Positions 1-29,586 of a stretch of DNA of 55,291 bases are shown piece after piece (position 1 is the first letter of the stretch; each line of letters starts with the position of its first letter). Source of the DNA: an uncultured Zetaproteobacteria bacterium. Lineage in GTDB: Bacteria; Pseudomonadota; Zetaproteobacteria; Mariprofundales; Mariprofundaceae. Below the pieces are notes generated by a model. The model made no database searches, was not told the DNA's origin, and saw nothing but the letters and a program-made list of their open reading frames with translations. The translations under genes and the position numbers were made by a program. The stretch spans positions 1 to 55,291 of the forward strand of contig CAZBJB010000001.1 of assembly GCA_964492105.1 (NCBI GenBank), written 5' to 3'.

Positions 1-1986
1 ATTGTGCCCGCTACTCACCGTCCCCGTGGCGTAACTGTTGCTGATGGTACTGGTGCTGTTGGTACTACTACCATTTTTCCCCACCAGCCCGCCAACATAA
101 GCGGCATTGCTCCCGCCATTCACCGCGCCCGTGGCGTAACTGGCACTGATGGTGCCGTAATTACCTCCCGCCAGCCCGCCAACATGAGTGCTTACCCATA
201 TTCCGCTCACCGCGCCCGTGACGTAGCTGGCGCCGATTGCGCCGTAATTATCTCCCACCAGCCCACCAACATAGCCCTTCCCTTTCACACTGCCGCCCAC
301 CAACCCGATATTGCGGAGGATGGATCCGGAACCTGTATCCCCAAACAATCCGACGTCACCTGCTGAGGATCTGTTGATGGTCAGCCCGCTGATGGTGTGA
401 CCCAGCCCATCAAGGATACCGGTAAATTTGGTCGTTGGATTACCGACAGGGGCGAAGCCCTTGCCGGAATTCCAGCTACTGGTGCCACCGGCAGCAATAT
501 CGCTTCCCAGCGCATAGTCACCACTCAGGTTTCCACTCATGCCTTGCAGGTCGGTTCCTGTCGTGCTGCCTGGCGCACCCAGGCTCGTGATCACGGTGTA
601 GTTTGTGAGCGCCCCGCCGGAACCCAGTTTAGTGCTGAAGTTGTTTCCCGCCGGTAAAGTGACAGGGGCATTCACATGATACGCGCCGGTGCCACCGTTC
701 GCGCTGCTCTGGCCGTATTCCAGTGCCAGGCCAGCGGCGCCGGAGCCGTTCATGGCGCTGTTGATATTGATGTCGTTTTGTGCATTCAAGGTAAGCTTGT
801 TCGCATTCCATACGACGATATCGTTCACATTGATATCACCGGCGGTGCCGCTGGCACCACTGGTACTCGCAATGGCTACATTACCTCCAACAAGACTGGT
901 GGACAGCGTACTGCCCGTCATATCACCGCCGCTGGCGGCAATGGTGAAGTCAACCGGATCGATCAGCCACTGACCACTTTTCCCATTACTGGCTTTTGTG
1001 GTGACATGGAGATGGTTGGCGATGCTGACGTGCGCAGCACTGGTCTCGATAAAGCCGCCGTTGCCGCCATTCGGTGCACTGGCATCCAGCGTGCCGCCCA
1101 CATGGATGGCGTTATTGCCCATGCCGCCCTTCAGGTATATTTGTCCGTCCTTGCCGGTGACCAGTGTCCGGGCTTCAATGATGCCGGTCTGGTTAATCAC
1201 GGTGCTGGCCAGATCGCCGGCTGCCCGGGCGGTGAGGTACACGGTGCCGCCGTCGGCCCTGATGGCGCCGCCCTGCTGAATCAGTGCGTTGAGCGCACTT
1301 CGTTTGACTTGAATTTTAACCGGGCCACCCAGATCAAGCGTGACGTTGCTACCGGCCCCTAACAGCACATTGCCCCTGTTGGCGGTCAGCGCGCCCTGGT
1401 TGGTGATTTTAGCAGCAATCAAGGCAATGGTGCCGCCCCCGGCCGCCGTAATATGACCCTGATTGATAATGGCATTGTCACTATTGCCCTGAAACCGATA
1501 ACGGCCTGACATAAAATCGCGGGTGCTGATATTAAGGGTAGAGGCCACAAGACCGCCGACATTGACCTGTGCCGTCGGCGTGAACAACACGCCGTTGGGG
1601 TTAATCAGAAACACCCGGCCATTGGCGTTGATCGCACCCTGGATGACCGACACATTCGCACCGAGAACCCGGTTAAGGGCGACGGCACTGGAACCGGGCT
1701 GTACAAAATTGACGGTATGCCCCTTGCCGATACTGAAACTGTGCCAGTTAGCAGCCAGCCTTGCGCTGGTTTGCGAGACGGTCATGGTGGTGGCGGACTG
1801 ACTGATATGGCCGGATCCGGCCACGATGGTGCCGCCGGTGGGCAGGGCGGCGGCAAACGCCGAAGCCAGGGGAACCGTACAAAGTAAACCGGTTAACATG
1901 ACCAGGGGCAACAGGGTCATGCGCTTTCGTGAAGCACTGGTGGCGAGATCCTGCTTCGCGGGTCGACCAGCTAATCCTTGAATCAT
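1..1986 (-). CDS. Two-partner-secretion TpsA / filamentous-haemagglutinin-like exoprotein with GLUG-type repeats. Only the N-terminal part is present; the C-terminus lies beyond the left edge.
   Basis: Absent from the ORF track because there is no stop codon inside the window. The reverse-strand frame ending at nt 1 is open throughout in my own translation. It reads (MIQGLAGRPAKQDLATSASRKR)MTLLPLVMLTGLLCTVPLASAFAAALPTGGTIVAGSGHISQSATTMTVSQTSARLAANWHSFSIGKGHTVNFVQPGSSAVALNRVLGANVSVIQGAINANGRVFLINPNGVLFTPTAQVNVGGLVAST. That is a signal peptide plus a haemagglutination-activity (TPS) domain with the NPNG motif. Gly/Asn-rich beta-helix repeats follow. At nt 1-450 there are repeats of the form YVGGLVG.NYG.I.ASY.TGAV.G. 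The start is ATG at 1986 or at 1920. Confidence 0.85.
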   Translation of the reverse strand, partial: MIQGLAGRPAKQDLATSASRKRMTLLPLVMLTGLLCTVPLASAFAAALPTGGTIVAGSGHISQSATTMTVSQTSARLAANWHSFSIGKGHTVNFVQPGSSAVALNRVLGANVSVIQGAINANGRVFLINPNGVLFTPTAQVNVGGLVASTLNISTRDFMSGRYRFQGNSDNAIINQGHITAAGGGTIALIAAKITNQGALTANRGNVLLGAGSNVTLDLGGPVKIQVKRSALNALIQQGGAIRADGGTVYLTARAAGDLASTVINQTGIIEARTLVTGKDGQIYLKGGMGNNAIHVGGTLDASAPNGGNGGFIETSAAHVSIANHLHVTTKASNGKSGQWLIDPVDFTIAASGGDMTGSTLSTSLVGGNVAIASTSGASGTAGDINVNDIVVWNANKLTLNAQNDININSAMNGSGAAGLALEYGQSSANGGTGAYHVNAPVTLPAGNNFSTKLGSGGALTNYTVITSLGAPGSTTGTDLQGMSGNLSGDYALGSDIAAGGTSSWNSGKGFAPVGNPTTKFTGILDGLGHTISGLTINRSSAGDVGLFGDTGSGSILRNIGLVGGSVKGKGYVGGLVGDNYGAIGASYVTGAVSGIWVSTHVGGLAGGNYGTISASYATGAVNGGSNAAYVGGLVGKNGSSTNSTSTISNSYATGTVSSGHN

Positions 1987-2254
1987 CCTTCCGCAAACGA
2001 CCTTCAACCCGCCCCGTTCGGACACGACCGGACTCCGCTTCACCCCGGGACGCAAAACACCACCCTCACCGGTTATCCGGTGCGAATAGTATCCCCGTGC
2101 CAAGGTCGTTCCTGCCGCCACTATTTCCTCCGAAAAGATCATTTGCAACCGAATCCAGTGGTAGCCTCAAGGGTAACGCGTATATAATCAAAAAGCAATA
2201 CTGTTATCCAGAACCCGACGTTGGCATACGGCGCATGTCACAACCCTTTAATTT

Positions 2255-2375
2255 GAGCCTCTTGCAACACTCCGGGTGGATGAGCGGCATGGTGGTTCCA
2301 TGGAGCGAAATTCAAGCTCGGAAATGGGCCGAAGCGGGGAAGCCGATCGCCGCTCATGCGTTTTGCAAGAGGTTC
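2255..2375. mobile_element. MITE family A, copy 1 (internally deleted)
   Basis: Termini are GAGCCTCTTGCAACAC ... GTTTTGCAAGAGGTTC. It is homologous to the copies at 21956, 25044, 27994 and 47057 but lacks about 40 nt of the central arm. Confidence 0.8.
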
Positions 2376-2416
2376 ATCTGTCATCAATTGTTCGTTGACA
2401 GGGGCATCAAACAGAA

Positions 2417-2436
2417 GGGGAGGCGTTAGCCTCCCC
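2417..2436 (-). terminator. Rho-independent-type hairpin downstream of the Cyc2-like gene
   Basis: GGGGAGGC-GTTA-GCCTCCCC, a perfect 8-bp GC-rich stem about 30 nt past the stop at 2468. On the minus strand it is followed by TTCTGTTTG. Confidence 0.6.
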
Positions 2437-2467
2437 CGTTAGCTCCCCTCGTCCGTTCAGAACAAAA

Positions 2468-3850
2468 TCACATCAATGCTTCAGCGGACAGCACCGTGGT
2501 TCTGTTCGTAAAGTTTTTCAGACCGGTACCACTGAGGGTGCCGGTCGGATCCGTAATCTTCTCATTATCGAATACCAGATTCAGATCAAAGTTTTGATAC
2601 AGCTTGTATACGGCGGCAAGCTGAAACTTTTGCGAACTGATATCCCCCGCGGCCAAACCTTTAAACCGCTTGTAGCCGTAACCGATACCAACCAGGAACC
2701 TGTTGACGGGTTCAATTTCGGTACGGATCGAATAGGCGTTGAACGTGTTACCCGCGGTATTAAACTTTCCGGTCATATCCATTGCACTACCGAAACCCGG
2801 TTCTCCCGGCATGCCGGGAGAACCATAAAAGTTACCGGCGCCGCTCGCGCTGGTACGGCCCGCGGCGTGTGCCCAGTCGCCATAAACACCCACGCTCATG
2901 TCATGAATCTCGCCCTGGAGTTGTACGTCGACAAACTGGAGGTTCATCGGTATCCGGGCATTTTCAAGCTTAACACCCATATTGGGTTTATTCAGGAAGC
3001 CGGAGCTGGTTGTTCCACCCGTTCCTCCCTTGCCTGCGGTGCCGGTCACATAGCCGAAGCCAATCAGCGTATCCCAGTCACCAACATTCAGGGTCGCCAC
3101 GGCACGCAACAGGTATCCCCATCGGGTACCCAGATTGCTGACGCCCGTGGTTTCTCCCGCAGGTGCAACCATGGCAAGCTGGATATAACCGAGATTCTTG
3201 TAGCGCACCCATGCGCCGAGACCCGTGGTCATTTTTGAAAAACCGGCGGCCTGAATGGCGGAAACATCCTTACCCGACAGTTTATCGCCACGGTGTCCGA
3301 ATACATTGGAGACTTCCATGGCGCTGGATGCACCCCATGGCGATTTGTGAGCACCCAGCCCGACCTGGAAATCGTCATTGATCCGAACGGAATTCAACAG
3401 TAGCCAGACAGGCGTGGGATTCATATTCTTGAATGAATTCCCATCAGCTCCACCCGTGAACATGATGAAGGCGCCCGTATGTTTACCGATACGCCCCGCA
3501 ATAAAGAGCCTGGCGCTGTCCGGTATATTATAGGTGGTGGTGGACGCTGCCCCGTCACCCGTCGTATGGGTTGCGGTTGCGACGACATCCATGCTCATGT
3601 TCAGCACCGTCGGGATGGACAGGTTATCATCCTCGACCAGCGCCTCATCACCCACATCGGTGAATGAATTGAACATGAATTCGCGACCGAAAGCGTTCAA
3701 GGCCGGAAAGGTCTGGAAATGACAGCTCAGGCAGGCTGCGCCGGTCTGGCGCGCAAATGCCGGAAGCGCCTCGGCCCTGCCTGGCAACAACGCAATACCG
3801 GATACCACAAGCAGAGCAAAAGCAGCAGTTGTAAGAAACATTTTCTTCAT
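2468..3850 (-). CDS. Cyc2-like fused monohaem cytochrome c / outer-membrane beta-barrel porin
   Basis: ORF 2468..4039, trimmed to the ATG at 3850, which is preceded by GGGAGGAAATTTAACACT (GGAGG RBS). It has a Sec signal, MKKMFLTTAAFALLVVSGIALLPGRAEA. A single CXXCH follows within LPAFARQTGAACLSCHFQTFPALNAFGREF. The remaining roughly 400 aa contain no cysteine, are rich in Gly/Thr/Asn/aromatic residues and look like a porin. Confidence 0.7.
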   Translation of the reverse strand: MKKMFLTTAAFALLVVSGIALLPGRAEALPAFARQTGAACLSCHFQTFPALNAFGREFMFNSFTDVGDEALVEDDNLSIPTVLNMSMDVVATATHTTGDGAASTTTYNIPDSARLFIAGRIGKHTGAFIMFTGGADGNSFKNMNPTPVWLLLNSVRINDDFQVGLGAHKSPWGASSAMEVSNVFGHRGDKLSGKDVSAIQAAGFSKMTTGLGAWVRYKNLGYIQLAMVAPAGETTGVSNLGTRWGYLLRAVATLNVGDWDTLIGFGYVTGTAGKGGTGGTTSSGFLNKPNMGVKLENARIPMNLQFVDVQLQGEIHDMSVGVYGDWAHAAGRTSASGAGNFYGSPGMPGEPGFGSAMDMTGKFNTAGNTFNAYSIRTEIEPVNRFLVGIGYGYKRFKGLAAGDISSQKFQLAAVYKLYQNFDLNLVFDNEKITDPTGTLSGTGLKNFTNRTTVLSAEALM

Positions 3851-4215
3851 AGTGTTAAATTTCCTCCCATATGTTGGCTCGGTTAAGCAGTTCGAGCCTT
3901 TATTTATCTTCTCCCCTGTTTCCAGACTTCCCTTCGACCTGCTCAAGCCATCCGTTTGCCGGCTTACAAGCAGGGAAAATACGGATCCCTTCGGGAGAAT
4001 CGGGGAGACGCTGCCGATGCTTGGCTGTAGAGTCAACATCCGGCATGTCCATGTGTGGCATTTCGTTACATGTTATACATACCTGGCATGGAAATATCAA
4101 AAACATTGTCAGGACAGTAAATTTCAGATTTATACCGGGTATCATGCAAGGCTTGTTCAATACCCTGAATCCCATAAACAGGAATATGGCCCGTAAGCAT
4201 TCCCGGATACGGGAA

Positions 4216-5523
4216 CTATTCCCCCAGCTTTCGGTACAGAGTGGAAAGGCCAATGCCAAGACGTCGACTGGTCTCTTCCTTGTCTCCGTTGCAGACCTTA
4301 ATCATTTGCAGGATCAAACCACGCTCAAAATTGACCGTTGCTTCCGCCAGCTTCGTTTCCTTTCCGCCGGCACGGATGTTCCGTGGTGGAATATCCAATT
4401 TACCGTTGCCGGCCAGCAGTAGCGCTCGTTCCAGTGTGTTTCCCAGTTCACGCGCATTGCCGGGCCAGTCCTGCACCTGGAGCCACAGGCATTGCCGCGC
4501 ATCCAGCGGGTCAACCCTGATTGCTTTATCCGCAGTGAGTTTTTCCAGCATGGAAACGGCCAGGGGCGCGATATCTTCCCGGCGCTCACGCAGGGGCGGG
4601 ATGCGTATATGGAGAATATCCAGGCAAAAGTATAAATCCTCCCGGAAGCGGCCCTGGCGGGTCTCGCCCCTGAGATCCTTGTTCGCGGCGGCGATGATCC
4701 GTGCATGGAAGGGATGTTTTCGCGTATCGCCCAGCGGTCGGAAATAGCCGTCATCCAGCACATGCAATAATCCGGCCTGTATGACCAGGGGTAATTCGTT
4801 GATTTCATTCAGAAACAATGTTCCGTTGCCCGCCATGGATAACAGGCCTTCACGATCCCGCTCCGCACCCGGGAATGCCCCCCGTTTGTAACCAAACAGT
4901 TCGCCTTCCATCAATTCACCGGAAATGGATGAACAATTAAACTGGATGAAGGGTTCTGCGTCACGATCACCGGCCATATGGATAAGGCTTGCCAGCCTTC
5001 TCTTGCCCACGCCTCTTTCTCCCTGAATCAACACCGGCGACCGCGTGGCGGCGGCTTTTCCCGCCATGTAGCGAACATGGCGCATGGTCTGCGAATCGCC
5101 CATGGAGGCCAGTGCCCCTTCGTCCCTCAGAATGGTGGTCATATTTTCCAGCCTCTGTTCCAGTTTGATCTTTTCATTGAGGCGCTTCAGCCGTGCCAGC
5201 AGTTCATCAAAGCGTATGGGTTTGGAGATATAATCATAGGCGCCGTTTTTTAGCGCCTGATCGGCAATATCCCTGTTACCAAATGCCGTCATCAGGATGC
5301 ATGGCACCGGATTATCGCGAGACTGGATATCGCGCAGTAAGTCGAAAGCATCGCCATCAGGCAAACGGATATCACTCAGAATTGCATCTATATCTTCGCC
5401 TGCAAGCTGATCACAGGCGCTTCGCAAGCTGTCCGCTTCCAGCATGCCATAACCTTCCTCAGCCAACATTTCCACGATACCCCGGCGGATGTGGCGTTCA
5501 TCCTCGACAATGAGTATGTTCAT
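4216..5523 (-). CDS. Sigma-54-dependent Fis-family response regulator (NtrC class)
   Basis: Receiver domain MNILIVEDE...LSDIRLPDGDAF. AAA+ core GERGVGKRRLA, a GAFPGA loop, LFLNEINELP and RIPPLRERREDI. C-terminal Fis-type HTH ETSRRLGIGLSTLYRKL. The ATG at 5523 overlaps the kinase stop (ATGA). Confidence 0.9.
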   Translation of the reverse strand: MNILIVEDERHIRRGIVEMLAEEGYGMLEADSLRSACDQLAGEDIDAILSDIRLPDGDAFDLLRDIQSRDNPVPCILMTAFGNRDIADQALKNGAYDYISKPIRFDELLARLKRLNEKIKLEQRLENMTTILRDEGALASMGDSQTMRHVRYMAGKAAATRSPVLIQGERGVGKRRLASLIHMAGDRDAEPFIQFNCSSISGELMEGELFGYKRGAFPGAERDREGLLSMAGNGTLFLNEINELPLVIQAGLLHVLDDGYFRPLGDTRKHPFHARIIAAANKDLRGETRQGRFREDLYFCLDILHIRIPPLRERREDIAPLAVSMLEKLTADKAIRVDPLDARQCLWLQVQDWPGNARELGNTLERALLLAGNGKLDIPPRNIRAGGKETKLAEATVNFERGLILQMIKVCNGDKEETSRRLGIGLSTLYRKLGE

Positions 5524-7016
5524 GCGGCCATCTCCGATGGCAGCCATGTACGAAAATGACTGCCATTTTGATCGCTGTGCGCCAGTTCGAGCCGGCCATG
5601 CATGCGTTCCATCAATTCGCGACTGATGGCGAGCCCGATCCCGCTTCCCGAGTGGCCTGGCTTGGTGGTAAACATGGGTTTGAAAATGTCCTCCTGAAGG
5701 TCCAATGGAATGCCGGATCCATTATCACACACGTTGATTGCGATACCGTCATCCAGATTTTCAGTCATCAATTCCACACGACCATCCTCCCCGCAGGCAT
5801 CCATGGCATTCAGCAACAAATTGACCAGTACCTGGCGTAACATGGATGCATTGGCCATCACGGGTGCCGGGGATGCCCTGAATACAGTTTCAAGTTTCAG
5901 CCGTTTCTGGTGGGGAGACATGCGCGCCAGCATCATCGCACTTCGAGCGACTGTTTCGATATGGATATGTGTCGTGTCTGATTCCGCGCCTGTTTTTCCA
6001 TAATCGAGAATATCGCGAATAATCGTTTCCGTACGCGACAATTCACTCATGGCTATCCGTACGCGCTCAGCGGCATCTTCACTTTGCCCCCGATCCAGTT
6101 TGCGCAAGGCCGTTTCGAGAGCAACCGATGCGCCCGCCAGCGGATTACCCACCTCATGGGCGATGCCCGCGGCCATCAGCCCCAACGCGCGCATTTTCTC
6201 ATGGTGAGCGGCCATGTTACGGGTATGGTTCAATTTGGTTTCCCGCTTCCGCAGAGCCTCACCCATCAGATTGCAGGCAAGGGCCAGCTCGCCCAGCTCA
6301 TCCATGGGGAGCGCAGGGCAATAAATATTGAAATCGCCATCTCCGATCTTTTTCAACTCGCGGCGAAGAGACGCCAGCGGGCGAACCATGTGCAGGTAAA
6401 GGTAAGCGGTGAATCCCGCAAGCAAGAACCACAGGGCAAGGATGGAAAACAAAAAATCGTTCCGCATGTCCATGCGCATAACAGACATCATGCGCATGGC
6501 CGCATTCACGCGTTGATCCAGCTTATGATGTCGTGCGGACAGATTCTTCGAGGCCTTATCGACGATATCATCAATCTCGCGCATCAGGATTGGACCCTCA
6601 AGGTTACTGGAAGAAAACGGTAAAGAGAAAACCTGCCTGGCCCTGGATGTGACACCCTCCAGCGTACGGGTAAGTTGCATGCTGACGGACTGTCCTGAAT
6701 ATTCCCGGTGAAGGGTCGCGGCCATTGCAGCACGGTTGACTTCAAATATTCTTCGCTGGCGCCAGTCACCATCGATGAGAAACGAGCGGACGGGTCTAAT
6801 CGTGTGAACCAGATCCATTTCCAGATCATGCAGACGATGACTTTCGTGATTAACGGCTTCAATGATCATGGCATCCCGATGCAGGGTATTGAAATCCCCG
6901 GTCATGTGCCAGCCAACATATGCAATCAGCGCAAACACCAGCGCAAGCCATCCGCCAATTTTCCATGCCAGCCGGGAACGCATGTCTGTTGATCTATTCC
7001 CTGGGAATATCGCCAT
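5520..7016 (-). CDS. Sensor histidine kinase (two TM segments, periplasmic sensor, HAMP, HisKA, HATPase)
   Basis: H-box AAGIAHEVGNPLAG, a HAMP-like segment LRRELKKIGDGDFN, N/G boxes LLLNAMDA and DNGSGI...GSGIGLAISRELM. An alternative start is M12 at 6983. Confidence 0.88.
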   Translation of the reverse strand: MAIFPGNRSTDMRSRLAWKIGGWLALVFALIAYVGWHMTGDFNTLHRDAMIIEAVNHESHRLHDLEMDLVHTIRPVRSFLIDGDWRQRRIFEVNRAAMAATLHREYSGQSVSMQLTRTLEGVTSRARQVFSLPFSSSNLEGPILMREIDDIVDKASKNLSARHHKLDQRVNAAMRMMSVMRMDMRNDFLFSILALWFLLAGFTAYLYLHMVRPLASLRRELKKIGDGDFNIYCPALPMDELGELALACNLMGEALRKRETKLNHTRNMAAHHEKMRALGLMAAGIAHEVGNPLAGASVALETALRKLDRGQSEDAAERVRIAMSELSRTETIIRDILDYGKTGAESDTTHIHIETVARSAMMLARMSPHQKRLKLETVFRASPAPVMANASMLRQVLVNLLLNAMDACGEDGRVELMTENLDDGIAINVCDNGSGIPLDLQEDIFKPMFTTKPGHSGSGIGLAISRELMERMHGRLELAHSDQNGSHFRTWLPSEMAA

Positions 7017-7518
7017 GTCCGGCGATATATTTCAGTGCCCGAACGGTACCCGCGCCGGCCCATGAATAAGGGCCGATCACCCTGGTAATGATCTTTCCTT
7101 CACGGTTCATGACCAGTGTTTCGGGATATTTGAATACGCCCAGTTTCGGTGCTGCGATTGAAGCACCTCCCGGATCCCGGAATATGGGGAACGGGATTTT
7201 ATGACGATGGACAAAGGCTTTGACATCCTCAAGGTTTTTGTCCACGGACAAGCCGACCACCGTGAACTGATCCTTTGGCAAGATTTGACTTAACTTTATC
7301 AGATCCGGCATTTCCTTACGACAGGGCGGACACCACGTGGCCCAGACATTCAATATGATGACCCTGCCCCTGAACAATTCACGGCTATGGACGATGTTGC
7401 CTGAAAGATCATGCAGCGACATACCTGGAAGCATGTCTCCCTTGCCAACCACCTTGTGGGCAGCGTTACCGCATGAGGCCAGCAGTAGCATCAGTGCGAA
7501 CGGGAACGACTTTATCAT
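6994..7518 (-). CDS. TlpA/ResA-family periplasmic thiol:disulfide oxidoreductase (lipoprotein)
   Basis: Lipobox MIKSFPFALMLLLASC and thioredoxin motif WATWCPPCRKEMPDL. The ORF 6994..7641 is trimmed to the ATG at 7518. Confidence 0.85.
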   Translation of the reverse strand: MIKSFPFALMLLLASCGNAAHKVVGKGDMLPGMSLHDLSGNIVHSRELFRGRVIILNVWATWCPPCRKEMPDLIKLSQILPKDQFTVVGLSVDKNLEDVKAFVHRHKIPFPIFRDPGGASIAAPKLGVFKYPETLVMNREGKIITRVIGPYSWAGAGTVRALKYIAGHGDIPRE

Positions 7519-7578
7519 TCGGAAACGGAGGCCAGATCCTGAATCGTGCACCACCCTTTCAACATTCCGATCCGTATA

Positions 7579-7637
7579 TGATTCACGGATCGTCGAATCG
7601 CCGTGATGATTGCGCCTGCATTGCTGAACAATGCAGG
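7579..7637. repeat. Family C repeat fragment plus a 9-bp-stem hairpin
   Basis: ATGATTCACGGATCGTCGAATCGCCGTGATGATTGCGCCTGC matches the left arm of family C. It is followed by CCTGCATTG-CTGAA-CAATGCAGG, which abuts the ccdA stop. Confidence 0.65.
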
Positions 7638-8405
7638 TCAATGCCCCGGCAGAGTAAAGGCGCCGTCAAGATTTGCCAGTGCCGGAAACCACTGGGCCAG
7701 CCAACCGGACAGTATGCTGAAGCTTCCAATGAATATAAGTACGCCAACCATAATCAACAGTACGCCCGACACCTTTTCAACCACTGTCAAATATCGTTTG
7801 AACCTTTGCGACCAGCGTAAGAATGAGTCCGTGACAAGCGCCGCCAGTAAAAACGGAATCGCGAGTCCAAGTGAATAGGCGAAAAGCAGGAGAATACCAT
7901 GCGACAGATCGGCCTGGATACTCGCAACCGCGAGAATCGCACCGAGAATGGGGCCGACGCAGGGCGTCCAGCCAAAGGCGAAAGCAGCGCCCAGTATCAG
8001 TGCGCCAATACCATGCCTGGCATTGATGCCCCTGGCCTCAAAGCGGGTGTCCATCATCAGCAGCGGGATACGTATCAGACCCGTGTAATGTAATCCGAAT
8101 ATGACAATGATGGTCCCGGCAATTTTACCGAGTACGTTCATGTGAGCCAGCAGCCATTGGCCCAGGAGTGTTGCCGATATCCCCAGCGCGATAAAGACCA
8201 GACTAAAACCTGCAATGAACCACACCGATTGCATCAGGGCACGCCTTCTTGCCGAAGCCGCGCGCCCCCCTTCATGCTGGCGAAGCTCGTTGACTGATAC
8301 GCCGGAAATATACGACAGGTACGCAGGCACCAGCGGCAATACGCATGGTGACAGAAACGATAATAGTCCGGCAATCAAGGCACCGATCAATGTGACTTCA
8401 ACCAT
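7638..8405 (-). CDS. ccdA: Cytochrome c biogenesis protein CcdA (DsbD-core thiol-reductant transporter)
   Basis: Polytopic membrane protein with the two conserved Cys motifs FLSPCVLPLVPAYL and GWTPCVGPILGAIL. The ATG at 8405 is preceded by an AGGAG RBS. Confidence 0.85.
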   Translation of the reverse strand: MVEVTLIGALIAGLLSFLSPCVLPLVPAYLSYISGVSVNELRQHEGGRAASARRRALMQSVWFIAGFSLVFIALGISATLLGQWLLAHMNVLGKIAGTIIVIFGLHYTGLIRIPLLMMDTRFEARGINARHGIGALILGAAFAFGWTPCVGPILGAILAVASIQADLSHGILLLFAYSLGLAIPFLLAALVTDSFLRWSQRFKRYLTVVEKVSGVLLIMVGVLIFIGSFSILSGWLAQWFPALANLDGAFTLPGH

Positions 8406-8580
8406 TCCACACTCCTGATACTGGATATTGACATGCGGCGCACGCCGCAACCCTTTGATTTGCCTGGCATTCCGAAAAATCACTCATCATCAATGAGGTG
8501 AATACATGATTGTTCGAAACGCCATGCAAACCAGATACTTACACCCTGCATCCAATGCCAATGTCAGATCCTGGGTTGAA

Positions 8581-11139
8581 TTACAATTTTGCCGTACGTA
8601 GCCTGAGCGCATTGGTGATGACCGATACCGAACTGAAGCTCATCGCGGCCGCTGCGATGATCGGTGACAATAGCAACCCGAATACGGGATACAGCACCCC
8701 GGCGGCAATGGGCACACCGGCCGAATTGTACACAAACGCAAAAAACAGGTTCTGGCGGATGTTTTTCATCGTTGCGCGTGACAGCCTGCGGGCACGTACA
8801 ATGCCGGTCAGATCACCCTTAACGAGGGTGATCCCGGCGCTTTCCATGGCCACGTCCGTACCCGTGCCCATGGCAATGCCGACATGCGCCTGCGCCAATG
8901 CCGGCGCATCGTTAATGCCATCGCCAGCCATGGCCACGATCCTGCCTTCATCCTGTAGTTGCCTGATGACCGCAGCCTTCTGATCGGGCAAAACATCCGC
9001 CTCGAAGCGGTCAATGCCCAGCTTCGCCGCCACGGCGGTTGCGGTATTATGATTGTCTCCGGTCAGCATCATCACTTCGATGCCCTCTCCGTGTAATGCC
9101 TTGATGGCATCGGACGTGGACGCCTTGACCGGATCGGAAACCCCCAGCAAGCCCACCAGTTGTCCGTCCATGGCAACATACATAACCGTTTCACCACCAC
9201 GCTGGTGTTCCTCTACCTCGGCCCGGACAGTGTCTGTTTCAACATTGTTATCCCGCATCAGTTTGGCGTTGCCCAGCAGGATGACATGACCGTCCACCAT
9301 CGCGCGCACACCCTTACCGATTGTGGCCGAGAAATTCTCAACCCCTCGCAGCACCAGAGTCCGCGTTGTTGCGGCACGAACGATGGCCTCCGCCAGGGGG
9401 TGTTCACTGGCTCGTTCAATACTGGCCGCCAGACACAACAGCTCGTCTTCAGGCATGTCGCCTGTTGCCCGGACGGTGGTTACGGCCGGCTTGCCTTCGG
9501 TCACGGTGCCGGTCTTGTCCACCACGACCATATTCACCTTCTCCATGATTTCCAGTGCTTCGGCATTCCTGATCAGTACACCGGCGGTGGCGCCGCGACC
9601 GGTTCCAACCATGATGGAAATCGGTGTGGCCAACCCGAGCGCGCAGGGACAGGCGACAATCAGCACCGCCACCGCATTGATGATGGCATGCGCCAGCCTG
9701 GGCTCCGGTCCGATAAAAAACCATACGGCAAAGGAGATCAGGGCCGCACTGACCACGGCCGGCACAAAATACCCGGCGACGGTATCGGCCATCTTCTGAA
9801 TCGGTGCCCGCGAGCGCTGAGCCGCGGCGACCATGTTCACGATTTGTGACAACAGCGTGTCCGCGCCCACCTTCTCGGCACGCATCAGCAGCGAACCATG
9901 ACCATTAACCGTGGCGCCAATCAACTGTTCCCCGACAAACTTCTCCACCGGAACAGGTTCGCCGGTAACCATTGATTCATCGACATGGCCCTCGCCCCCG
10001 GTCACGACCCCGTCCACGGGCACCTTTTCGCCGGGACGGATACGCAGAATATCTCCTGCCTGCACCTCTTCCATGGGTACGTCGGTTTCAGCACCGTCCG
10101 CATGGACGCGCCGGGCTGTTTTCGGCGCCATGCCGAGTAGCAGTTTGATGGCTTCATTGGTGCGCGATCTGGCACGCAGCTCCAGCACCTGGCCGAGTAG
10201 CACCAACGCGGTGATCACCGCTGCGGCTTCGAAATAGACATCGACCAGCCCACCCTTCCGCATCAGCGGTGGAAATATTTCCGGCAACACCAGCGCAACC
10301 ACGCTATAAATCCAGGCCACGCTTACGCCGAGGCCGACCAGCGTAAACATATTCAGATTCCAGGTTTTGATGGACAGGGCAAAGCGCTCGAAGAACGGCC
10401 ATCCGCCCCACAGCACCACCGGCGTAGCCAATACAAATTCAGACCATTGCACCGCGTGCATGGAGAATCCCTCTGGCAGCCAGCCGGGGACAAGGTCGGC
10501 GACCATGGCCAGCAGAAAGAGGGGTACGGCCAGCGCCGTGCTGATCCGGAAACGCCTGGTCATGTCGATGAGTTCAGGATTTTTTTCTTCACCGGTTACC
10601 GTACGTGGTTCCAGCGCCATACCGCACTTCGGGCAATTGCCCGGCGCATCGCTGATGACCTCCTGATGCATGGGGCAAAAGTATTCGGTTTTCCGGGACA
10701 GCCGAGGCACCGCCATCGGTTCCAGCGCCATACCGCATTGTTTGCAGATGCCTGCCCCCTTCTGTTCCTGACCGGGGCACATCGGACAAAAATACATGGC
10801 TCCGGTATCATCGGCCGGAGGATGAGCTCCCGTGGATTTGGCGGCATGATGGTGTTCACACACCTGACCTTTGTTCACGTAAGCCGGCGGATTCGCCGAG
10901 AACTTGTCCAGGCACCCTTTACAACAAAAACGGTAGCTTTTATCGGCATGCCGGGTGCGATGGGGGGATTCGGGTTTGACATGCATGCCGCATACCGGAT
11001 CGATGGTGAACTGGTCGGGTTCGGATTTAAACTTTTGCACACATCGGGCGCTGCAAAAGAGCCACGTATGCCCGTCATATTCCATACCATGGGGTGAATC
11101 ATCCTGGACTGTCATTCCGCAAACAGGATCAATATTCAT
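8581..11139 (-). CDS. copA: Cu(I)-translocating P1B-type ATPase with an N-terminal array of 2 YHS/TRASH and 2 CPxC..CPxCGM metal-binding modules
   Basis: Motifs: [10 protein letters not shown] (TM6), [24 protein letters not shown] (TM7), [11 protein letters not shown] (TM8). The N-terminus carries DPVCGM twice, then [18 protein letters not shown] and [16 protein letters not shown]. The ATG at 11139 is preceded by AAGGAGAG. Confidence 0.92.
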
Positions 11140-11166
11140 GGTTTCTCTCCTTGATGTGGTTCGCAT

Positions 11167-11275
11167 GATTCACGAATCGCCGTACTGTGCGTGCCTGCGT
11201 GCCTGTGCGTGCCTCCTGTGCGTGCCGCACGCAGACAGGCCGGGCCTTTGTTCACAACGGAGATTGCGGGGAAAG
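11167..11275. repeat. Family C repeat, copy b (one-ended, with an internal triple GTGCGTGCCT run)
   Basis: GATTCACGAATCGCCGTACTGTGCGTGCC...GTGCGTGCCGCACGCAGACAGGCCGGGCCTTTGTTCACAACGG is nearly identical to 29409-29483. Confidence 0.75.
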
Positions 11276-11305
11276 GGTTCGTAGCCGCAGGTGATGGCAT
11301 GGCGT

Positions 11306-13000
11306 TTAGCGTACGTAGGCATCGGCGGCATAACGGCGCATCATGCGGTGGCTGTTGAATATCGAGGCATTTTTACTGATAGCGCCCTTCATCACGGCAA
11401 TCCAGCCAGCCCGATCCCCGTGGTAAAGTGGCAGGACGACCCTTTCCAGTTTCTCATAGAGCGAGGCTGCATCACCATCGTTGTCCGCCTTTCCGCGGTC
11501 TCCGATGGCCCAGCCCGTGATCCCCTCAATGCAGCCCTCGATCCACCAGCCGTCGAGTACGGACAGATTGGGCACGCCGTTGAAGGCGGCCTTCATACCG
11601 CTGGTGCCCGAGGCCTCCATCGGTTTGAGGGGTGTGTTCAGCCATACGTCCACGCCCGAGACCATGGACAATGCAATATCCATATCGTAGTCCGGGATGT
11701 AGGCCATGGGGATGATGTCCGAGAGATCGCGCATATGATGATGTATTTCTTCAATCAGACGATGCCCTGCTTCATCCATGGGATGGGCCTTGCCCGAGAT
11801 CACGATCTGGAAGGGGTGTTCTTTGGCGATGGTCTTTAAGCGCGCCATGTCGGTAAACAGCAGATCCGCGCGCTTGTAGGCGGTCATGCGTCGGGCAAAA
11901 CCGAGGATGGGAAGTTTCGGGTTGAGTGCGAGGCCGGTGAGGGCACGAACCTTGTCGATCAAGCCCTGTCTGGCCTGGACATGTGCTTGCCAGACGGCTT
12001 CATCATCAATGCAGCAATCGACGCGTAACAGTTGCTCTGGCTCATGACACCAACCGGGGAGATGCGTATCGTAGAGTGTGCGAAAGGGTGATGATGCCCA
12101 TGTATAAGGGTGAACGCCGTTGGTGATGGCGCGCACGCGGTAGCCGGGAAACATCTTGCGCGAGACCTCGGCATGTCGTTTTGCCACGCCATTCACATAG
12201 TCGCTCAAATTCAGCGCCAGCCGGGTCATGTTGAGGCTGTCGCCGCCAGCCAGCAGTTTTAAGGTCTCCGGATCAATCATCTCACCCATGACGCGATGCA
12301 CCAGGTCGTGTGGAAACTTGTCCTGCCCGGCTTCTACCGGCGTGTGCGTGGTAAAGTTGCACATTTCGCGCACCCTGGGTACGTCATACGGGGTTTCTCC
12401 CGGTCGCAGATCATCCAGCGGATAGGCATAACGGCGCAGAAGCTCAAGGGTGAGAAGAGCGGAATGCCCTTCATTCAAGTGGTACTGACGCACATGGAAA
12501 CCAAGGGCGTTCAGTAAATCCACGCCACCGACACCGAGCACGATTTCCTGTTTAAGGCGATAGGCGGTATCGCCGCCATAGAGATGATCGGTGATCCGGC
12601 GGTCTTCCTCGTTATTTTCATCAAGGTCGGTGTCGAGCAAAAGTACCGGTTGTGTCCCGCCCATGTGGCCTTCCAGCACATACAGCCAGCCGCTCACCCA
12701 CACGTTGCGCCCTTCAATGGGGACGGTCACTTTCGCGGACAGGGGGCTGGCATATTGCGCCGGATCCCAGGGATCGGGGCTTTCACCCTGCCGACCCCGG
12801 TCATCAATCGTCTGCCGGAAATAGCCCAGACGACTGACGAGGGTGACGGCCACCATGGGCATTTCCAGATCGGCGGTTGAGCGAAGGACGTCGCCAGCCA
12901 GCACGCCGAGGCCGCCGCTATAGGTAGGGATGTCGTTTTGCAGTGCGATCTCCATTGAAAAATAGGCGATTCGCTCCTTACGAATGAACCCTCTAAGCAT
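11306..13000 (-). CDS. glgP: Alpha-glucan family phosphorylase (GT35, short form)
   Basis: YFSMEIALQNDIPTYSGGLGVLAGD at the N-terminus and the PLP-lysine region SGTSGMKAAFNGVPNLSVLDGWW. Confidence 0.9.
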   Translation of the reverse strand: MLRGFIRKERIAYFSMEIALQNDIPTYSGGLGVLAGDVLRSTADLEMPMVAVTLVSRLGYFRQTIDDRGRQGESPDPWDPAQYASPLSAKVTVPIEGRNVWVSGWLYVLEGHMGGTQPVLLLDTDLDENNEEDRRITDHLYGGDTAYRLKQEIVLGVGGVDLLNALGFHVRQYHLNEGHSALLTLELLRRYAYPLDDLRPGETPYDVPRVREMCNFTTHTPVEAGQDKFPHDLVHRVMGEMIDPETLKLLAGGDSLNMTRLALNLSDYVNGVAKRHAEVSRKMFPGYRVRAITNGVHPYTWASSPFRTLYDTHLPGWCHEPEQLLRVDCCIDDEAVWQAHVQARQGLIDKVRALTGLALNPKLPILGFARRMTAYKRADLLFTDMARLKTIAKEHPFQIVISGKAHPMDEAGHRLIEEIHHHMRDLSDIIPMAYIPDYDMDIALSMVSGVDVWLNTPLKPMEASGTSGMKAAFNGVPNLSVLDGWWIEGCIEGITGWAIGDRGKADNDGDAASLYEKLERVVLPLYHGDRAGWIAVMKGAISKNASIFNSHRMMRRYAADAYVR

Positions 13001-13065
13001 CGTTGACTCCTTCCGATCTGATATGACGTATTCGTTTAACCCGCATCATTCATGAAGTATGCAGG

Positions 13066-15162
13066 TCAAAAGAATACGGCCAGCGACCGCGTTTGCATAC
13101 GCCAGCAACCGGATTTCACCCGTTGCCGCCCGGTGTGGGGATCGCCTCCATCCTCTGGCGTGGGCTGTGAGGTGTCCAGCAACATCTGCCAGCTCCGCCC
13201 TGACGGCTGCCCTGGCAGCCGGAAGTTCACGGTTTCGATGGTGGCATTGAACAGCAGACAGAGTGCTTCGCCTGCGTCCCGACCGGCGTGGATCATGCAG
13301 CCGAGCAGGCCGCGTGGCCCGTTCCAGTCGGGGGACGCCAGATCGGGATCGAACCACCGGACTTCTTCCGGCATATAGAAACGTTCCGCCCTCAACACCG
13401 GAAACCGCCGTCGAAGATCAATCAGGACGCGTACGAAGCGGTGCAGCTCGCGGTGCTCCTCCAGTAATCCCCAGTCGTACCAGCTGATCTCGTTATCCTG
13501 GCAATAGGCGTTGTTGTTGCCACCCTGGCTACGGCGGAACTCGTCACCGCCGAGCAGCATGGGGACGCCGCGCGAGAGCAGCAGCGTCGCCAGCATGTTT
13601 TTGATCTGGCGCAGGCGTACAGCCTCTACCGCCGGATCATCGGTGCGGCCTTCGATACCGTAGTTGGCGCTGATGTTGTCATTGCATCCATCGGCACTGT
13701 CTTCGCCGTTGGCCTCGTTGTGCTTCTGCGCATAGCTCACCAGATCGTTCAGGGTGAATCCGTCGTGACAACTTATGTAATTGATGCTGTGCAGCGGTGA
13801 TTTTCCACTGTACCGGTAGATGTCGGCGCTACCGCACAGGCGGCTGGCCAGTGCGCCGGTCATGCCGGCATCGCCGCGCCAGAAGCGACGTACATCATCC
13901 CGGTAGCGACCATTCCACTCCGACCAGCGCATACCCGGAAAGCTACCCACCTGGTAGGCGCCGCCCGCATCCCAGGCTTCGGCGATCAGTTTGACGCCGA
14001 TCAGGATCGGATCCTCGGCGATACGCTCCAATAGCGGCGGATTGGGCAGCAGATCGCCGTGCTCGCCGCGACCCAGCACGGAAGCCAGATCGAAACGGAA
14101 GCCGTCCACATGCATTTCGATGACCCAGTGGCGCAGGCAATCAAGAATATAATCGCGCACCACCGGATGATTGCAGTTCAGGGTGTTGCCGGTGCCGGAA
14201 TAGTTCCTGTAGAAACGCCGGTCTTCTTCCAGCAGGTAGTAAACGGGATTATCCAGGCCGCGAAAGTTGAGCGTCGGCCCCGTGTGATTACCCTCCGCCG
14301 TATGGTTGAAGACGATATCAAGGATGACCTCAATGCCCGCCCGATGCAATTCCCGCACCATGGTCTTGAACTCGCTCACCTGACAACCCATACGGGAACG
14401 GCTGCCGTAGCCTTCCCTCGGGGCAAAAAAGACCACCGTGCTGTAGCCCCAGTAGTTGCGCAGGCGCTTACCGGTGAGCGGGTTGCGCCGCACCAGCTCG
14501 TTCGCGTGGAATTCCTGCACCGGCAACAGCTCAATGGCGGTTACGCCCAGCGACTGCAGATAGGGTATCTTCTCCACCACGCCGGGAAAGGCGCCGGGAT
14601 GGCGAACGCCGGATGAGGGATGCATGGTGAGGCCGCGGACATGGGTTTCGTAGATGATCGTTTCACACCAGGGATGGGCGGGTGGATAGTCACCCTGCCA
14701 GTCGAATGCATCGTCCGGCAACAGGCACTTGGCCTTGACGCCGGCGTCGCTTGCAATTGCCTTGGCCATGGGGCCGCATACGCTGGCGAAGTCCCAGCAA
14801 TCGGCGCCGGCAAGCGCCGTGGCATGGGGATCGAGCAGGATGTTGTGCTTGTTGAAGCGGAGCCCGTGCTCGGGTGCATCAGGGCCGTCCGCCTGCCAGG
14901 CGTAGAGTACATGTTGGCCAAGGCCGTCCACGCATATATGCCAGATATCCCCCGTGCGATTATACCGTGTATCAAGTGCGATGATCCGGGCCGGAGCCTC
15001 ATCCCGCGGACTGTCGAACAGCAGCAGGCTGATCCCGGTGGCGTGGCGGCTGAAAATAGCGAAATTGACGCCGGAACAGCCCCGATACGCACCAAGAGGC
15101 AGGGGAACGCCGGCTATCAGCTTCAGCACCATGAGATGACCGTTCGCCCGCTTAGCCTGCAT
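13066..15162 (-). CDS. glgX: Glycogen debranching enzyme GlgX
   Basis: GH13 motifs VILDIVFNHT, GFRFDLASVL, LIAEAWD, YISCHDGFTLNDL. The N-terminus PLPLGAYRGCSGVNFAIFS is typical of GlgX. An alternative start is the ATG at 15132. Confidence 0.92.
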   Translation of the reverse strand: MQAKRANGHLMVLKLIAGVPLPLGAYRGCSGVNFAIFSRHATGISLLLFDSPRDEAPARIIALDTRYNRTGDIWHICVDGLGQHVLYAWQADGPDAPEHGLRFNKHNILLDPHATALAGADCWDFASVCGPMAKAIASDAGVKAKCLLPDDAFDWQGDYPPAHPWCETIIYETHVRGLTMHPSSGVRHPGAFPGVVEKIPYLQSLGVTAIELLPVQEFHANELVRRNPLTGKRLRNYWGYSTVVFFAPREGYGSRSRMGCQVSEFKTMVRELHRAGIEVILDIVFNHTAEGNHTGPTLNFRGLDNPVYYLLEEDRRFYRNYSGTGNTLNCNHPVVRDYILDCLRHWVIEMHVDGFRFDLASVLGRGEHGDLLPNPPLLERIAEDPILIGVKLIAEAWDAGGAYQVGSFPGMRWSEWNGRYRDDVRRFWRGDAGMTGALASRLCGSADIYRYSGKSPLHSINYISCHDGFTLNDLVSYAQKHNEANGEDSADGCNDNISANYGIEGRTDDPAVEAVRLRQIKNMLATLLLSRGVPMLLGGDEFRRSQGGNNNAYCQDNEISWYDWGLLEEHRELHRFVRVLIDLRRRFPVLRAERFYMPEEVRWFDPDLASPDWNGPRGLLGCMIHAGRDAGEALCLLFNATIETVNFRLPGQPSGRSWQMLLDTSQPTPEDGGDPHTGRQRVKSGCWRMQTRSLAVFF

Positions 15163-15181
15163 TATTCATGAAGAGTCCAGG

Positions 15182-16756: not shown

Positions 16757-16795
16757 ATTGCCTCTTTAGCATGAACTAATTATGAACTAATTTAT

Positions 16796-17040
16796 AAATG
16801 TAGCCATACCCAGCGGCTGCAAATAAGGGATATTCTCCACCATGCCAGGCAAGATGCCGGGATGGCGAACGCTGGATGAGGTGTGCATGATGCGGCTGCG
16901 GGCACGGGTGTCGTGGATGCTCGTTTCGCGTCAGGGATGAGCGGGCGCCACCGCAATCGAATGCGCCGTCCGACACCAGGCAACTCGACCTCGATCCCGG
17001 CATCACTTAAGATCGCCTTCACGACGGGATCGCATGTGTA
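16796..17040 (-). pseudogene. Decayed internal fragment of a glgX paralogue
   Basis: These roughly 245 nt align by eye to glgX nt about 14545-14790. About three quarters of positions are identical, and there are a 9-nt gap and frame disruptions. Compare KAILSDAGIEV with glgX KAIASDAGVKA, and in a shifted frame PHPAFAIPA..AWWR...ICSRW in both. Confidence 0.8.
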
Positions 17041-17043
17041 GCT

Positions 17044-20564: not shown

Positions 20565-20648
20565 GTCCCTGGCGAGCGCCGTGTGTTTGCGGCAAAGGTG
20601 ATGACAAACAGGCTGATGGCATGGGCCGCAGCAACAAGCGCAATGTTG

Positions 20649-21938: not shown

Positions 21939-21955
21939 ACCGTTTCCTGGTTCTA

Positions 21956-22116
21956 GAGCCTCTTGCAAAACTCATGATCGGCGATCTGCTTCCCCACTTC
22001 GGCCCATTTCCGAGCTTGAATTTCGCTCCATGGAACCACCATGCAGCTCATTCAATTCCGGAAATGGTCTCAAAGCGGGATTGCCGCTCATCCACCCGGA
22101 GTTTTGCAAGAGGCTC
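21956..22116. mobile_element. MITE family A, copy 2
   Basis: GAGCCTCTTGCAAAAC...GTTTTGCAAGAGGCTC, flanked by the direct repeat TCTA (21952-55 and 22117-20). The arms fold into a long near-perfect hairpin. Confidence 0.85.
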
Positions 22117-27494: not shown

Positions 27495-27510
27495 CCTGTT
27501 CATGAACAGG
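27495..27510. promoter_or_regulatory. Perfect 16-bp palindrome CCTGTTCATGAACAGG about 15 nt upstream of the xseA start
   Basis: Read directly from the sequence. It sits between the dksA stop (27547) and the xseA start (27480). A small hairpin, CCGCA-CCGGA-TGCGG at 27523-37, lies next to it. Confidence 0.3.
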
Positions 27511-27546
27511 TCAGGATAAATCCCGCACCGGATGCGGCTGATTCAG

Positions 27547-29574: not shown

Positions 29575-29586
29575 ATTAGGAGGTAT

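Follow-up and report, generated by a model that had tools for sequence, protein, structure and literature searches.

Cyc2 serves as the main marker gene of microbial iron oxidation at neutral pH, and environmental activity is inferred from its transcripts; no regulator of it is known in these organisms, however, and why multiple copies exist is an open question (PMC7029218). According to McAllister et al. 2020 (PMC7029218), cyc2 regulation still needs testing, and the functional difference between the Cyc2 clusters is unknown. For the rus operon of Acidithiobacillus ferrooxidans, which contains cyc2, control by a two-component system (TCS), RegBA, has been proposed (PMC5506826); RegBA, however, acts as a global redox system and lies apart from cyc2, its regulator is of a non-NtrC type, and the Cyc2 of that organism belongs to a different cluster. 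Here we analyze a stretch of 55,291 nucleotides from an uncultured Zetaproteobacteria bacterium of the family Mariprofundaceae (contig CAZBJB010000001.1 of assembly GCA_964492105.1, positions 1 to 55,291; hereafter, the window), in which a cyc2 gene is preceded, on the minus strand, by genes for an NtrC-family response regulator, its sensor histidine kinase, a TlpA-like thioredoxin, CcdA and the copper ATPase CopA. An earlier reading of these letters (the original prediction) was not aware of any description of this arrangement, and the literature search found no cyc2-adjacent TCS in neutrophilic iron oxidizers; with this TCS, a candidate regulator of cyc2 can for the first time be named for iron oxidizers living at neutral pH. 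Each component belongs to a known family, and what is probably new is the combination of one particular Cyc2 clade with an NtrC-family TCS dedicated to it, amid genes for copper export and thiol redox; in the window, this TCS appears to be sigma54-independent.

ZraSR is a periplasmic metal sensor system that controls an envelope protein. The window TCS has the architecture of the sigma54-dependent systems of the ZraSR/AtoSC/NtrBC type, that is, a kinase with a periplasmic sensor followed by HAMP, HisKA and HATPase_c domains, a regulator composed of REC, AAA+ and HTH_8 domains, and tandem palindromic upstream sites. It differs from these systems in that its sensor finds no match in Pfam or in PDB by sequence, the apparent target is an outer-membrane cytochrome-porin that lacks a -24/-12 promoter, and the regulator carries GAFPGA and NE in Walker B. 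Enhancer-binding proteins (EBPs) that lack GAFTGA, have a variant Walker B and act with sigma70 have been described, namely, VpsR, TyrR, PhhR, HupR, NtrX and HsfA (PMC6158489). The thiol-redox genes recall the CcdA-TlpA/ResA pathway (cytochrome c maturation; ScoI/CoxB reduction) and the Scs-type copper-tolerance systems, with which they share a two-cysteine CcdA and a membrane-anchored thioredoxin-fold partner.

The explanation that we favor, with slightly better than even confidence, is an envelope metal-response locus consisting of several transcription units (copA; ccdA; tlpA-kinase-regulator; cyc2), in which the TCS would control the cyc2 paralog. The six genes are as follows.
2468-3850, minus strand: cyc2 paralog, 460 amino acids, with a signal peptide, one CLSCH haem motif and a predicted 16-strand beta-barrel porin
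4216-5523, minus strand: NtrC-family response regulator, REC, AAA+ and HTH_8, atypical (Pfam, motif alignments)
5520-6983, minus strand: sensor histidine kinase, first transmembrane segment, periplasmic domain, second transmembrane segment, HAMP, HisKA and HATPase_c (Pfam)
6994-7518, minus strand: TlpA/ResA-like thioredoxin-fold lipoprotein, lipobox LLLASC and active site WCPPC, both read from the sequence
7638-8405, minus strand: CcdA (DsbD_TM, PF02683, 7.4e-20) with both cysteines (SPCVLP, TPCVGP)
8581-11139, minus strand: P1B-1 Cu(I)/Ag(I)-type ATPase (CopA), two YHS and two HMBD domains at the N-terminus, E1-E2 ATPase

These are six consecutive minus-strand open reading frames (ORFs), located where the original prediction placed them, and the identities it assigned hold, by Pfam and NCBIfam for five of the six and for Cyc2 by 46% identity over 423 residues (E 4e-113) to Cyc2PV-1 (AKN78226) of Mariprofundus ferrooxydans. 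The gaps, in the order from copA to cyc2, are 175 nucleotides (copA/ccdA), 119 (ccdA/tlpA), 10 (tlpA/kinase), -4 (kinase/regulator) and 365 (regulator/cyc2), so that the short gaps or overlaps claimed for the entire block are found at two of the five junctions, tlpA/kinase and kinase/regulator, but not at the other three (119-365 nucleotides). The kinase stop and the regulator start do overlap, in GCATGAAC, through the shared ATGA that had been reported. TlpA, which was said to overlap or abut the kinase, lies close to it: the tlpA stop (6994-6996) is followed by a 10-nucleotide gap to the kinase start at 6983 (MRSRLAWK), which is backed by orthologue comparison, and a 23-nucleotide overlap results if the upstream ATG at 7016 is used. 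Within the six genes, only tlpA, the kinase and the regulator are coupled as a tight unit. Hairpins follow ccdA and cyc2.
7615-7637, minus strand: perfect hairpin of 9 bp, CCTGCATTG-TTCAG-CAATGCAGG, 1 nucleotide past the ccdA stop, without a U-tract
2416-2437, minus strand: terminator-like hairpin GGGGGAGGC-TAAC-GCCTCCCCT with a T-rich tail, 31 nucleotides past the cyc2 stop

The former is a possible transcript boundary or processing site, and the latter marks the end of the unit. Given the three long gaps, the hairpin after ccdA and the conserved regulatory elements that cyc2 has of its own, the self-contained six-gene unit of the original prediction is not a tight operon and probably not a single transcription unit.

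By its sequence features, the window gene is a Cyc2-type fused monohaem cytochrome-porin, with a predicted Fe(II) oxidase role. No family model in Pfam or NCBIfam matched the protein, and the feature list used for comparison was taken from PMC5513912. The signal sequence, read by eye as MKKMFLTTAAFALLVVSGIALLPGRAEA with the cut before LP, aligns with those of 21 homologues; C40-L-S-C43-H44 is invariant in the alignment, there is no second CXXCH, and the N-terminal motif PAFxRQTGAACLxCHFQ is invariant and common to 22 homologues. The AlphaFold2 model (predicted template modelling score, pTM, 0.73) contains 16 strands within residues 81-459, and its best Foldseek matches are the 16-strand general porins PorB, Omp32 and OmpF (E 5e-12). 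With Cyc2PV-1 (Cluster 1, neutrophilic iron oxidizers), the window protein shares the signal peptide, the single CXXCH, the PAFARQTGAACLSCHFQTFPALNAFGR motif and the predicted 16-strand barrel, but its own sub-clade is a separate one, always set in a tlpA/TCS/CopA context. An upstream ATG at 4039 was considered as the cyc2 start and rejected: the extension is not conserved as protein and is out of frame or interrupted by stops in relatives.

A functional link between the TCS and cyc2 is supported by the recurrence of their neighborhood. We examined 74 Cyc2-encoding loci from reference genomes (loci are designated by L numbers), onto each of which the other five window proteins were mapped, and enlarged this set by further contigs and by scanning metagenomes with the sensor domain of the kinase as seed. 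Most of the 74 loci, including those of M. erugo, M. micogutta and strain EBB-1, contain none of the other five genes. Eight loci, all of them among the Cyc2s nearest to that of the window (53-85% identity), carry the regulator, usually along with the kinase and TlpA, directly upstream. Altogether, the tlpA-kinase-regulator-cyc2 core is found in approximately 12 independent Zetaproteobacterial loci (type A), in general accompanied by CopA, CcdA and a small cytochrome c; the core is present, whole or in part, in L003, L004, L005, L007, L008, L027, L078, L085, L093 and others, and CopA, CcdA or cytochrome c occur in most of these too. The genes recur in the arrangement [CopA]-[CcdA]-[monohaem cytochrome c]-TlpA-kinase-regulator-Cyc2-[CopA], with CopA upstream of cyc2 in the window, L003 and L008 and downstream in L005, L007 and L078; the window lacks the cytochrome c that most of its relatives possess. 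Partial versions occur as well: L094 combines CopA, CcdA, cytochrome c, TlpA and Cyc2 without the TCS, and the module is split in two close relatives, L001, which has an orphan regulator-cyc2 pair, and L083 (VAOZ01181627.1), where a GlgX-GlgP-Zwf-CopA-TlpA-kinase array is followed by neither regulator nor cyc2. The synteny that was proposed as a check is therefore conserved for the core linkage but not for the gene order, and CcdA and cytochrome c come and go. That the genes are linked rather than merely adjacent is borne out by synteny in many independent contigs and by the search from the kinase sensor.

In a neighbor-joining tree of 63 Zetaproteobacterial Cyc2s, all TCS-linked Cluster 1 copies together with L094 form one clade, and every other Cyc2 in this tree for which at least 2 kb of upstream sequence is available lacks a TCS. 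Five metagenome-assembled genomes (MAGs) hold both a TCS-linked and a TCS-less cyc2, on different contigs. Because these copies form a clade of their own and both kinds occur in the same five MAGs, the window-type Cyc2 is a distinct paralog rather than the general Cyc2. The identities to the window proteins are incongruent among loci: the L078 kinase is 78% identical and the regulator 65%, but in L004 the respective values are 65% and 79%; such incongruence among kinase, regulator and Cyc2 is seen in L003, L004, L007, L078 and L093. Such a pattern points to recombination inside the locus, in which the regulator and the downstream cis-region apparently travel as a cassette.

The association extends to a second, distant module type. 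Kinase homologues with 38-42% identity, one of them from M. ferrooxydans PV-1, likewise precede a gene for an NtrC-type regulator, and in the six loci of this kind (type B), the regulator is followed by a 460-483-amino-acid Cyc2-like protein starting with IPVFARKYGLSCNSCH, and/or by a small outer-membrane protein. The type-B Cyc2-like protein aligns with the window Cyc2 in the cytochrome domain only and probably represents a candidate for the "Cluster 3" Cyc2 of PMC7029218. Type-B loci encode CopA and CcdA 76-78% identical to those of the window; they lack TlpA, in the place of which a FeThRed_B-like protein and a CBS protein are found. In PV-1 (L096; DS022294.1, 655294-674784), the order is YHS/HD protein, CopA, an insertion (NmeDI_C and transposase), CcdA, Lycopene_cyc-domain protein, CBS protein, FeThRed_B-like protein, kinase, regulator, small outer-membrane protein and Cyc2-like protein. 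Judging from these comparisons, the association of the TCS with a Cyc2-like protein, CopA and CcdA is old and outlasts the replacement of single parts. The presence of the distant module in PV-1, a cultured type strain, makes experiments possible.

Several candidate regulatory elements were identified in the 365 nucleotides between the regulator and cyc2.
4169-4215, minus strand: tandem palindromes TTCCCGTATCCGGGAA (4200-4215) and TTCCTGTTTATGGGAT (4169-4184), 31 bp apart, 1 nucleotide past the regulator stop, pattern TTCCC-N6-GGGAA
4054-4070, minus strand: 17-bp palindrome-like operator TGTAACGAAATGCCACA, family consensus TGTnnCA-N3-TGnnACA
4008-4036, minus strand: candidate sigma70-type promoter, TTGACT (4036-4031), 17 nucleotides, CAGCGT (4013-4008), inferred
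3876-3974, minus strand: leader segment with potential hairpins at 3938-3974 (long, imperfect) and 3876-3898, before a GGGAGG ribosome-binding site

The tandem palindromes are the only match to their pattern with at most one mismatch in the window, where 2.2 would be expected by chance, so this count is unremarkable alone. Among the 17 loci with sequence available there, a palindrome within 90 nucleotides of the regulator stop matches at least 9 of the 10 specified bases in 11 and at least 8 of 10 in 14. The palindromes hold their position in both module types, between which the surrounding intergenic DNA does not align, and in L093 and PV-1, a second pair lies ahead of a second target gene. 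No palindrome was found in the region upstream of copA. Because their sequence is invariant without covariation and copies precede the second targets, we read the palindromes as protein-binding; they are likely to be the binding sites (upstream activating sequences) of the regulator, whose regulon would comprise the gene or genes that follow.

The regulator itself departs from the sigma54-type label that the TCS had been given. This designation fits the domain architecture (PF00158, Sigma54_activat, 2.4e-54; PF00072, REC, 3.1e-26; PF02954, HTH_8, 7.6e-09), but GAFPGA stands where GAFTGA is expected, the Walker B aspartate is replaced by asparagine (FLNE, in GTLFLNEI), and cyc2 lacks a -24/-12 promoter: in the consensus and position weight matrix (PWM) search of 3851-4215 for a sigma54 promoter, the best match scored 8 bits, and its position is not conserved. 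Among the homologues, L001-L004 have GAFPGA like the window, L007 has GAIPGT and L008 GALPGT, and all others have GAFSGA or GAFTGA. In three of these seven proline-loop loci, the Walker B aspartate is replaced (by asparagine in the window and L007, by histidine in L004), whereas DE is present in all GAFTGA/GAFSGA homologues. None of the seven shows a comparable -24/-12 element (best PWM at most 8 bits, positions not conserved). By contrast, sigma54 PWM scores of 10.6-14.9 bits were obtained in L078, L093, L005, L027 and L088, 40-138 nucleotides upstream of the target and 3' of the palindromes, and the Cyc2-like genes of L090, L092 and PV-1 share TGGCA-N6-CTTTCT.
Sigma54-like promoters: L078, TGGCACACCCCTTGCG; L093, TGGCATAGACCTTGTT; L005, TGGCATCATGCTTGTT; L088, TGGCATGAGAACTGCG; PV-1, TGGTATAACATTTGCT

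The loci without a -24/-12 promoter are exactly the seven with a proline-loop regulator. Decay of the regulator was considered and rejected: the ratio of nonsynonymous to synonymous substitution rates (dN/dS) against orthologues is 0.10-0.16, in the whole gene and in the AAA+ domain alike, which indicates purifying selection. The window regulator is probably an atypical, sigma54-independent EBP. Like VpsR and similar proteins, it is built in the manner of NtrC but has changes in the GAFTGA loop and in Walker B (ND in VpsR, NE in the window; PMC6158489), and in the window, the target promoter also looks sigma70-like. Unlike the case of those EBPs, close sister regulators of the window protein (62-68% identical) retain GAFSGA along with sigma54-like promoters, so that the switch would be recent and confined to one orthologous group.

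In all seven proline-loop loci (the window, L001, L002, L003, L004, L007 and L008), a TTGAC / 17 nucleotides / CAnnnT element is conserved. The 17-bp operator, which these seven have in common, is centered approximately 61 bp upstream of the inferred start, deviates from the consensus at one position in the window copy, and is present only in lineages whose regulator lacks GAFTGA. In addition, a leader of approximately 160 nucleotides upstream of cyc2 is conserved in seven loci, with the purine-rich blocks TCGAAGGGAAG and GGAAACAGGGGAG between its two hairpins. In the RNAalifold analysis of the leader, the hairpins are in register with a covariation term of +0.52, and in the pair-count control, 86 of 500 shuffles reach the observed covariation score; an Rfam search of the leader and of the whole window returned no family. 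With seven sequences, the covariation is not significant, and we do not claim the cyc2 leader as an RNA element.

Under the explanation that we favor, the kinase would sense a periplasmic signal, a metal ion such as Fe(II) or Cu, through a four-helix-bundle domain and phosphorylate the NtrC-family regulator, which would bind the tandem TTCCC-N6-GGGAA palindromes 3' of its own gene and control the adjacent cyc2 paralog. This paralog would encode a fused monohaem cytochrome-porin that is inducible and supplements the TCS-less Cyc2 which, in the five module-bearing relatives, is encoded elsewhere in the same MAG. In the sister lineages, control would be of the classic sigma54 type, with GAFTGA/GAFSGA regulators and TGGCA-N6-TTGC-like promoters, and in the window lineage, the sigma54 promoter would have been replaced by the TTGAC/17/CAnnnT element, with the extra 17-bp operator and the long conserved leader. 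CcdA would hand cytoplasmic reducing power to the TlpA-like lipoprotein, and CopA would export Cu(I); the thiol pair would either keep the CXXCH cysteines of Cyc2 and of the neighboring cytochrome c reduced, or repair or prevent copper-driven thiol damage.

Several observations weigh against this scheme. With approximately 135-170 bp between them and the proposed -35 downstream, the palindromes are distant for an activator that works with sigma70, and they could instead serve autoregulation or weak termination of the tlpA-kinase-regulator transcript. A generic promoter scan did not call the proposed sigma70 promoter, whose -10 is weak. The joint loss of GAFTGA and of the -24/-12 promoter may be a single ancestral event in a co-inherited cassette, and the gene content around the core varies. 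The assignment of the sensor ligand draws solely on conserved residues in a monomer model, and the host genome is represented by the 55-kb window, which bears on the presence of rpoN and of a second cyc2.

The conserved sensor and regulator, together with the candidate binding sites and promoters upstream of specific Cyc2 clades, make the questions of cyc2 regulation and of its multiple copies testable, and cyc2 transcripts may not all report the same physiological state. The apparent change from sigma54-dependent to sigma54-independent control within one orthologous family offers a compact natural case for how EBPs change their mechanism.

The kinase and the regulator find their best NCBIfam matches in AtoS/ZraS and NtrC/AtoC/NtrX/ZraR, respectively, all far under the equivalog cut-offs. 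The periplasmic domain of the kinase, given as about 170 amino acids in the original prediction, comprises approximately 150 and has no Pfam match and no PDB match by sequence; Foldseek with the whole kinase matched the catalytic core only. In the AlphaFold2 model (predicted local distance difference test, pLDDT, 83), this domain is a four-helix bundle. A protein search with the sensor domain alone gave four matches. Across 24 kinase homologues, down to 32% identity, the sensor region retains N45, H49, H52, E55, E129, H152 and D172 as invariant residues. The invariant His/Glu cluster (H49, H52, E55, E129, H152) suggests a metal ligand, Fe(II), Cu or Zn. Fe(II) as the signal fits the target gene and the Fe(II)-stimulated expression of cyc2 (PMC7029218). 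Cu fits the neighbors: most loci have CopA, and relatives carry RND, HMA, YHS and DUF411 genes.

As a copper-homeostasis island, the locus could be understood differently, a possibility that we hold tentatively and consider unlikely on balance: the kinase would sense periplasmic Cu, CopA (with RND, HMA, YHS and CopG proteins in relatives) would export or buffer it, CcdA-TlpA would counter copper-induced thiol mis-oxidation in the manner of Scs/DsbD-type systems, and the Cyc2 paralog and the small outer-membrane proteins would be copper-stress outputs, e.g., a Cu(I) oxidase or a replacement iron oxidase. Scs/TlpA-type thiol systems are linked to copper tolerance. The gene neighborhoods speak for this possibility. 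In relatives, the core lies among ACR_tran RND efflux, HMA, YHS and DUF411/CopG genes; in L001 (CAZUWV010000012.1), the orphan regulator-cyc2 pair adjoins genes, assigned from ORF size and order only, that run divergently and would encode an RND pump, a membrane-fusion protein and an outer-membrane factor; CopA, at 67-86% identity, is present in most loci with enough flanking sequence, in both module types; L090 has His-rich membrane proteins and a second, HMA-type CopA after the Cyc2-like gene; and CsoR/RcnR and NicO genes occur near the PV-1 module. The His/Glu cluster of the sensor points the same way, but a set of three His and two Glu is no less suitable for Fe(II) or Zn than for Cu(I). 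Cyc2, moreover, is known solely as an Fe(II) oxidase, its transcripts increase in mats upon Fe(II) addition (PMC7029218), and the RND, HMA and CopG genes are missing from the window itself. Adjacency of metal genes could also reflect a shared genomic island rather than a regulon, and copA has no palindrome upstream.

A more elaborate version appears doubtful. Here the kinase would be a dedicated periplasmic sensor of copper (or of Cu/Fe redox state), this Cyc2 clade would be a copper-stress output (either an outer-membrane oxidase of Cu(I) or a copper-resistant substitute for the iron oxidase) co-ordinated with CopA and with CcdA/TlpA thiol repair, and the regulator family would have recently switched, together with its promoter, from sigma54-dependent to sigma54-independent action. 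If true, the copper-sensor proposal would tie iron lithotrophy to copper homeostasis.

The original prediction assigned the thiol pair a more specific task. In its model, a co-transcribed six-gene unit, driven by a sigma54 TCS, senses, matures and metallates one outer-membrane cytochrome, with CcdA and TlpA reducing the CXXCH of Cyc2. The TlpA-like protein matches AhpC-TSA, Redoxin and Thioredoxin_8 in Pfam (E 1e-12 to 1e-21) but scores below the curated equivalog cut-offs for TlpA (77.8 vs 230), ResA (75.7 vs 170) and DsbE (61.2 vs 123), and the start of tlpA is uncertain, with an alternative GTG approximately 40 nucleotides upstream. Its active site, WATWCPPCRKEMP, resembles the rhizobial TlpA site. 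CcdA orthologues, 78-86% identical, adjoin CopA in both module types. CopA scores 595.7 bits against TIGR01511 (cut-off 397). The P1B-1 signature consists of the transmembrane motifs CPC, YN and MxxSS, and all three can be read from the CopA sequence (ACPCALG, VYNSAG and MSFSS).

That CcdA and TlpA keep the haem-site cysteines of Cyc2 reduced may be regarded as a candidate role. TlpA always sits immediately before the kinase, many relatives have a monohaem cytochrome c directly in front of TlpA, which then stands between two c-type cytochrome genes, and in L094, cytochrome c, TlpA and Cyc2 are adjacent even without the TCS; this placement fits the maturation idea, and CcdA recurs in both module types. 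Yet the distant modules have CcdA and a Cyc2-like gene but no TlpA, which, with the copper context, fits a role in copper-stress thiol repair at least as well, and CopA has no known role in haem-protein maturation. Unlike in the CcdA-TlpA/ResA pathway, tlpA and ccdA of the window are separated by 119 nucleotides and a hairpin and are not obviously co-transcribed. With the gaps of 119-365 nucleotides, the hairpin, a separate cyc2 promoter region, a regulator devoid of the sigma54-coupling determinants and no -24/-12 promoter at cyc2, the six-gene maturation model appears improbable.

Finally, a coincidental neighborhood, in which strand bias aligns unrelated genes, only the kinase and the regulator form a true unit and their target lies elsewhere, would accommodate the large intergenic gaps, a single palindrome match per 55 kb that is within chance, and a minus-strand run of at least 17 successive genes, including clearly unrelated glycogen, phosphoketolase and adhesin genes, but it is highly improbable, given the same neighbors in approximately 12 type-A and six type-B loci despite rearrangements, palindromes conserved in position within otherwise unalignable intergenic DNA, and the monophyly of the TCS-linked Cyc2s.

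The co-directionality of the six genes is uninformative because all large genes from 1 to approximately 27.5 kb are on the minus strand. From approximately 30 kb onward, they are on the plus strand, and the GC skew is mostly negative up to approximately 28 kb and mostly positive after, with the cumulative minimum at approximately 26-28 kb. The flip from all-minus to all-plus orientation at approximately 27500-30000, with dnaB located at 31635-33065, may be a replication-related strand switch. The G+C content is approximately 53% over the cyc2-regulator-kinase-tlpA-ccdA stretch (2000-8000), compared with 57-61% for copA and the glycogen and central-metabolism genes (8000-22000); this is a weak hint at a separate origin, as 52-53% is found also elsewhere in the window. 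The downstream neighbor of cyc2 (1-2121, minus strand) encodes the N-terminal part of a very large FhaB-like two-partner-secretion (TPS) exoprotein that runs off the window, with a TPS domain followed by Gly-rich repeats of the VGGLVG/VGGLAG type; in the identical contig L079, the protein exceeds 1135 amino acids. This gene is unrelated to the six-gene locus. A perfect sigma54 consensus, TGGCACTGCACTTGC, at 30176-30190 (plus strand) lies inside a gene for a DUF2232 membrane protein (29977-30993) and was set aside as a probable chance match.

Two further kinds of proteins accompany the modules. A small outer-membrane-type protein of 240-280 amino acids, ending in F and without a Pfam family, repeatedly adjoins the TCS and Cyc2; one group starts with GANFVLY, and in L093, L088 and PV-1, the gene has its own sigma54-like promoter 3' of the palindrome(s).
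Small outer-membrane-type protein: L093, 6370-7173; L081, 11397-12242; L096, approximately 12206-13005; L088, 2968-3693; L087, 11658-12419

A His-rich inner-membrane protein (..HQHSHSGSLA.DAMQRLLRGHIH..), which possibly binds metal, follows the Cyc2 gene in both module types (L078, 11358-12041; L090, 6135-6809; L092, 12534-13229), and in L090 and L092, it is followed by a lipoprotein of 157-159 amino acids.

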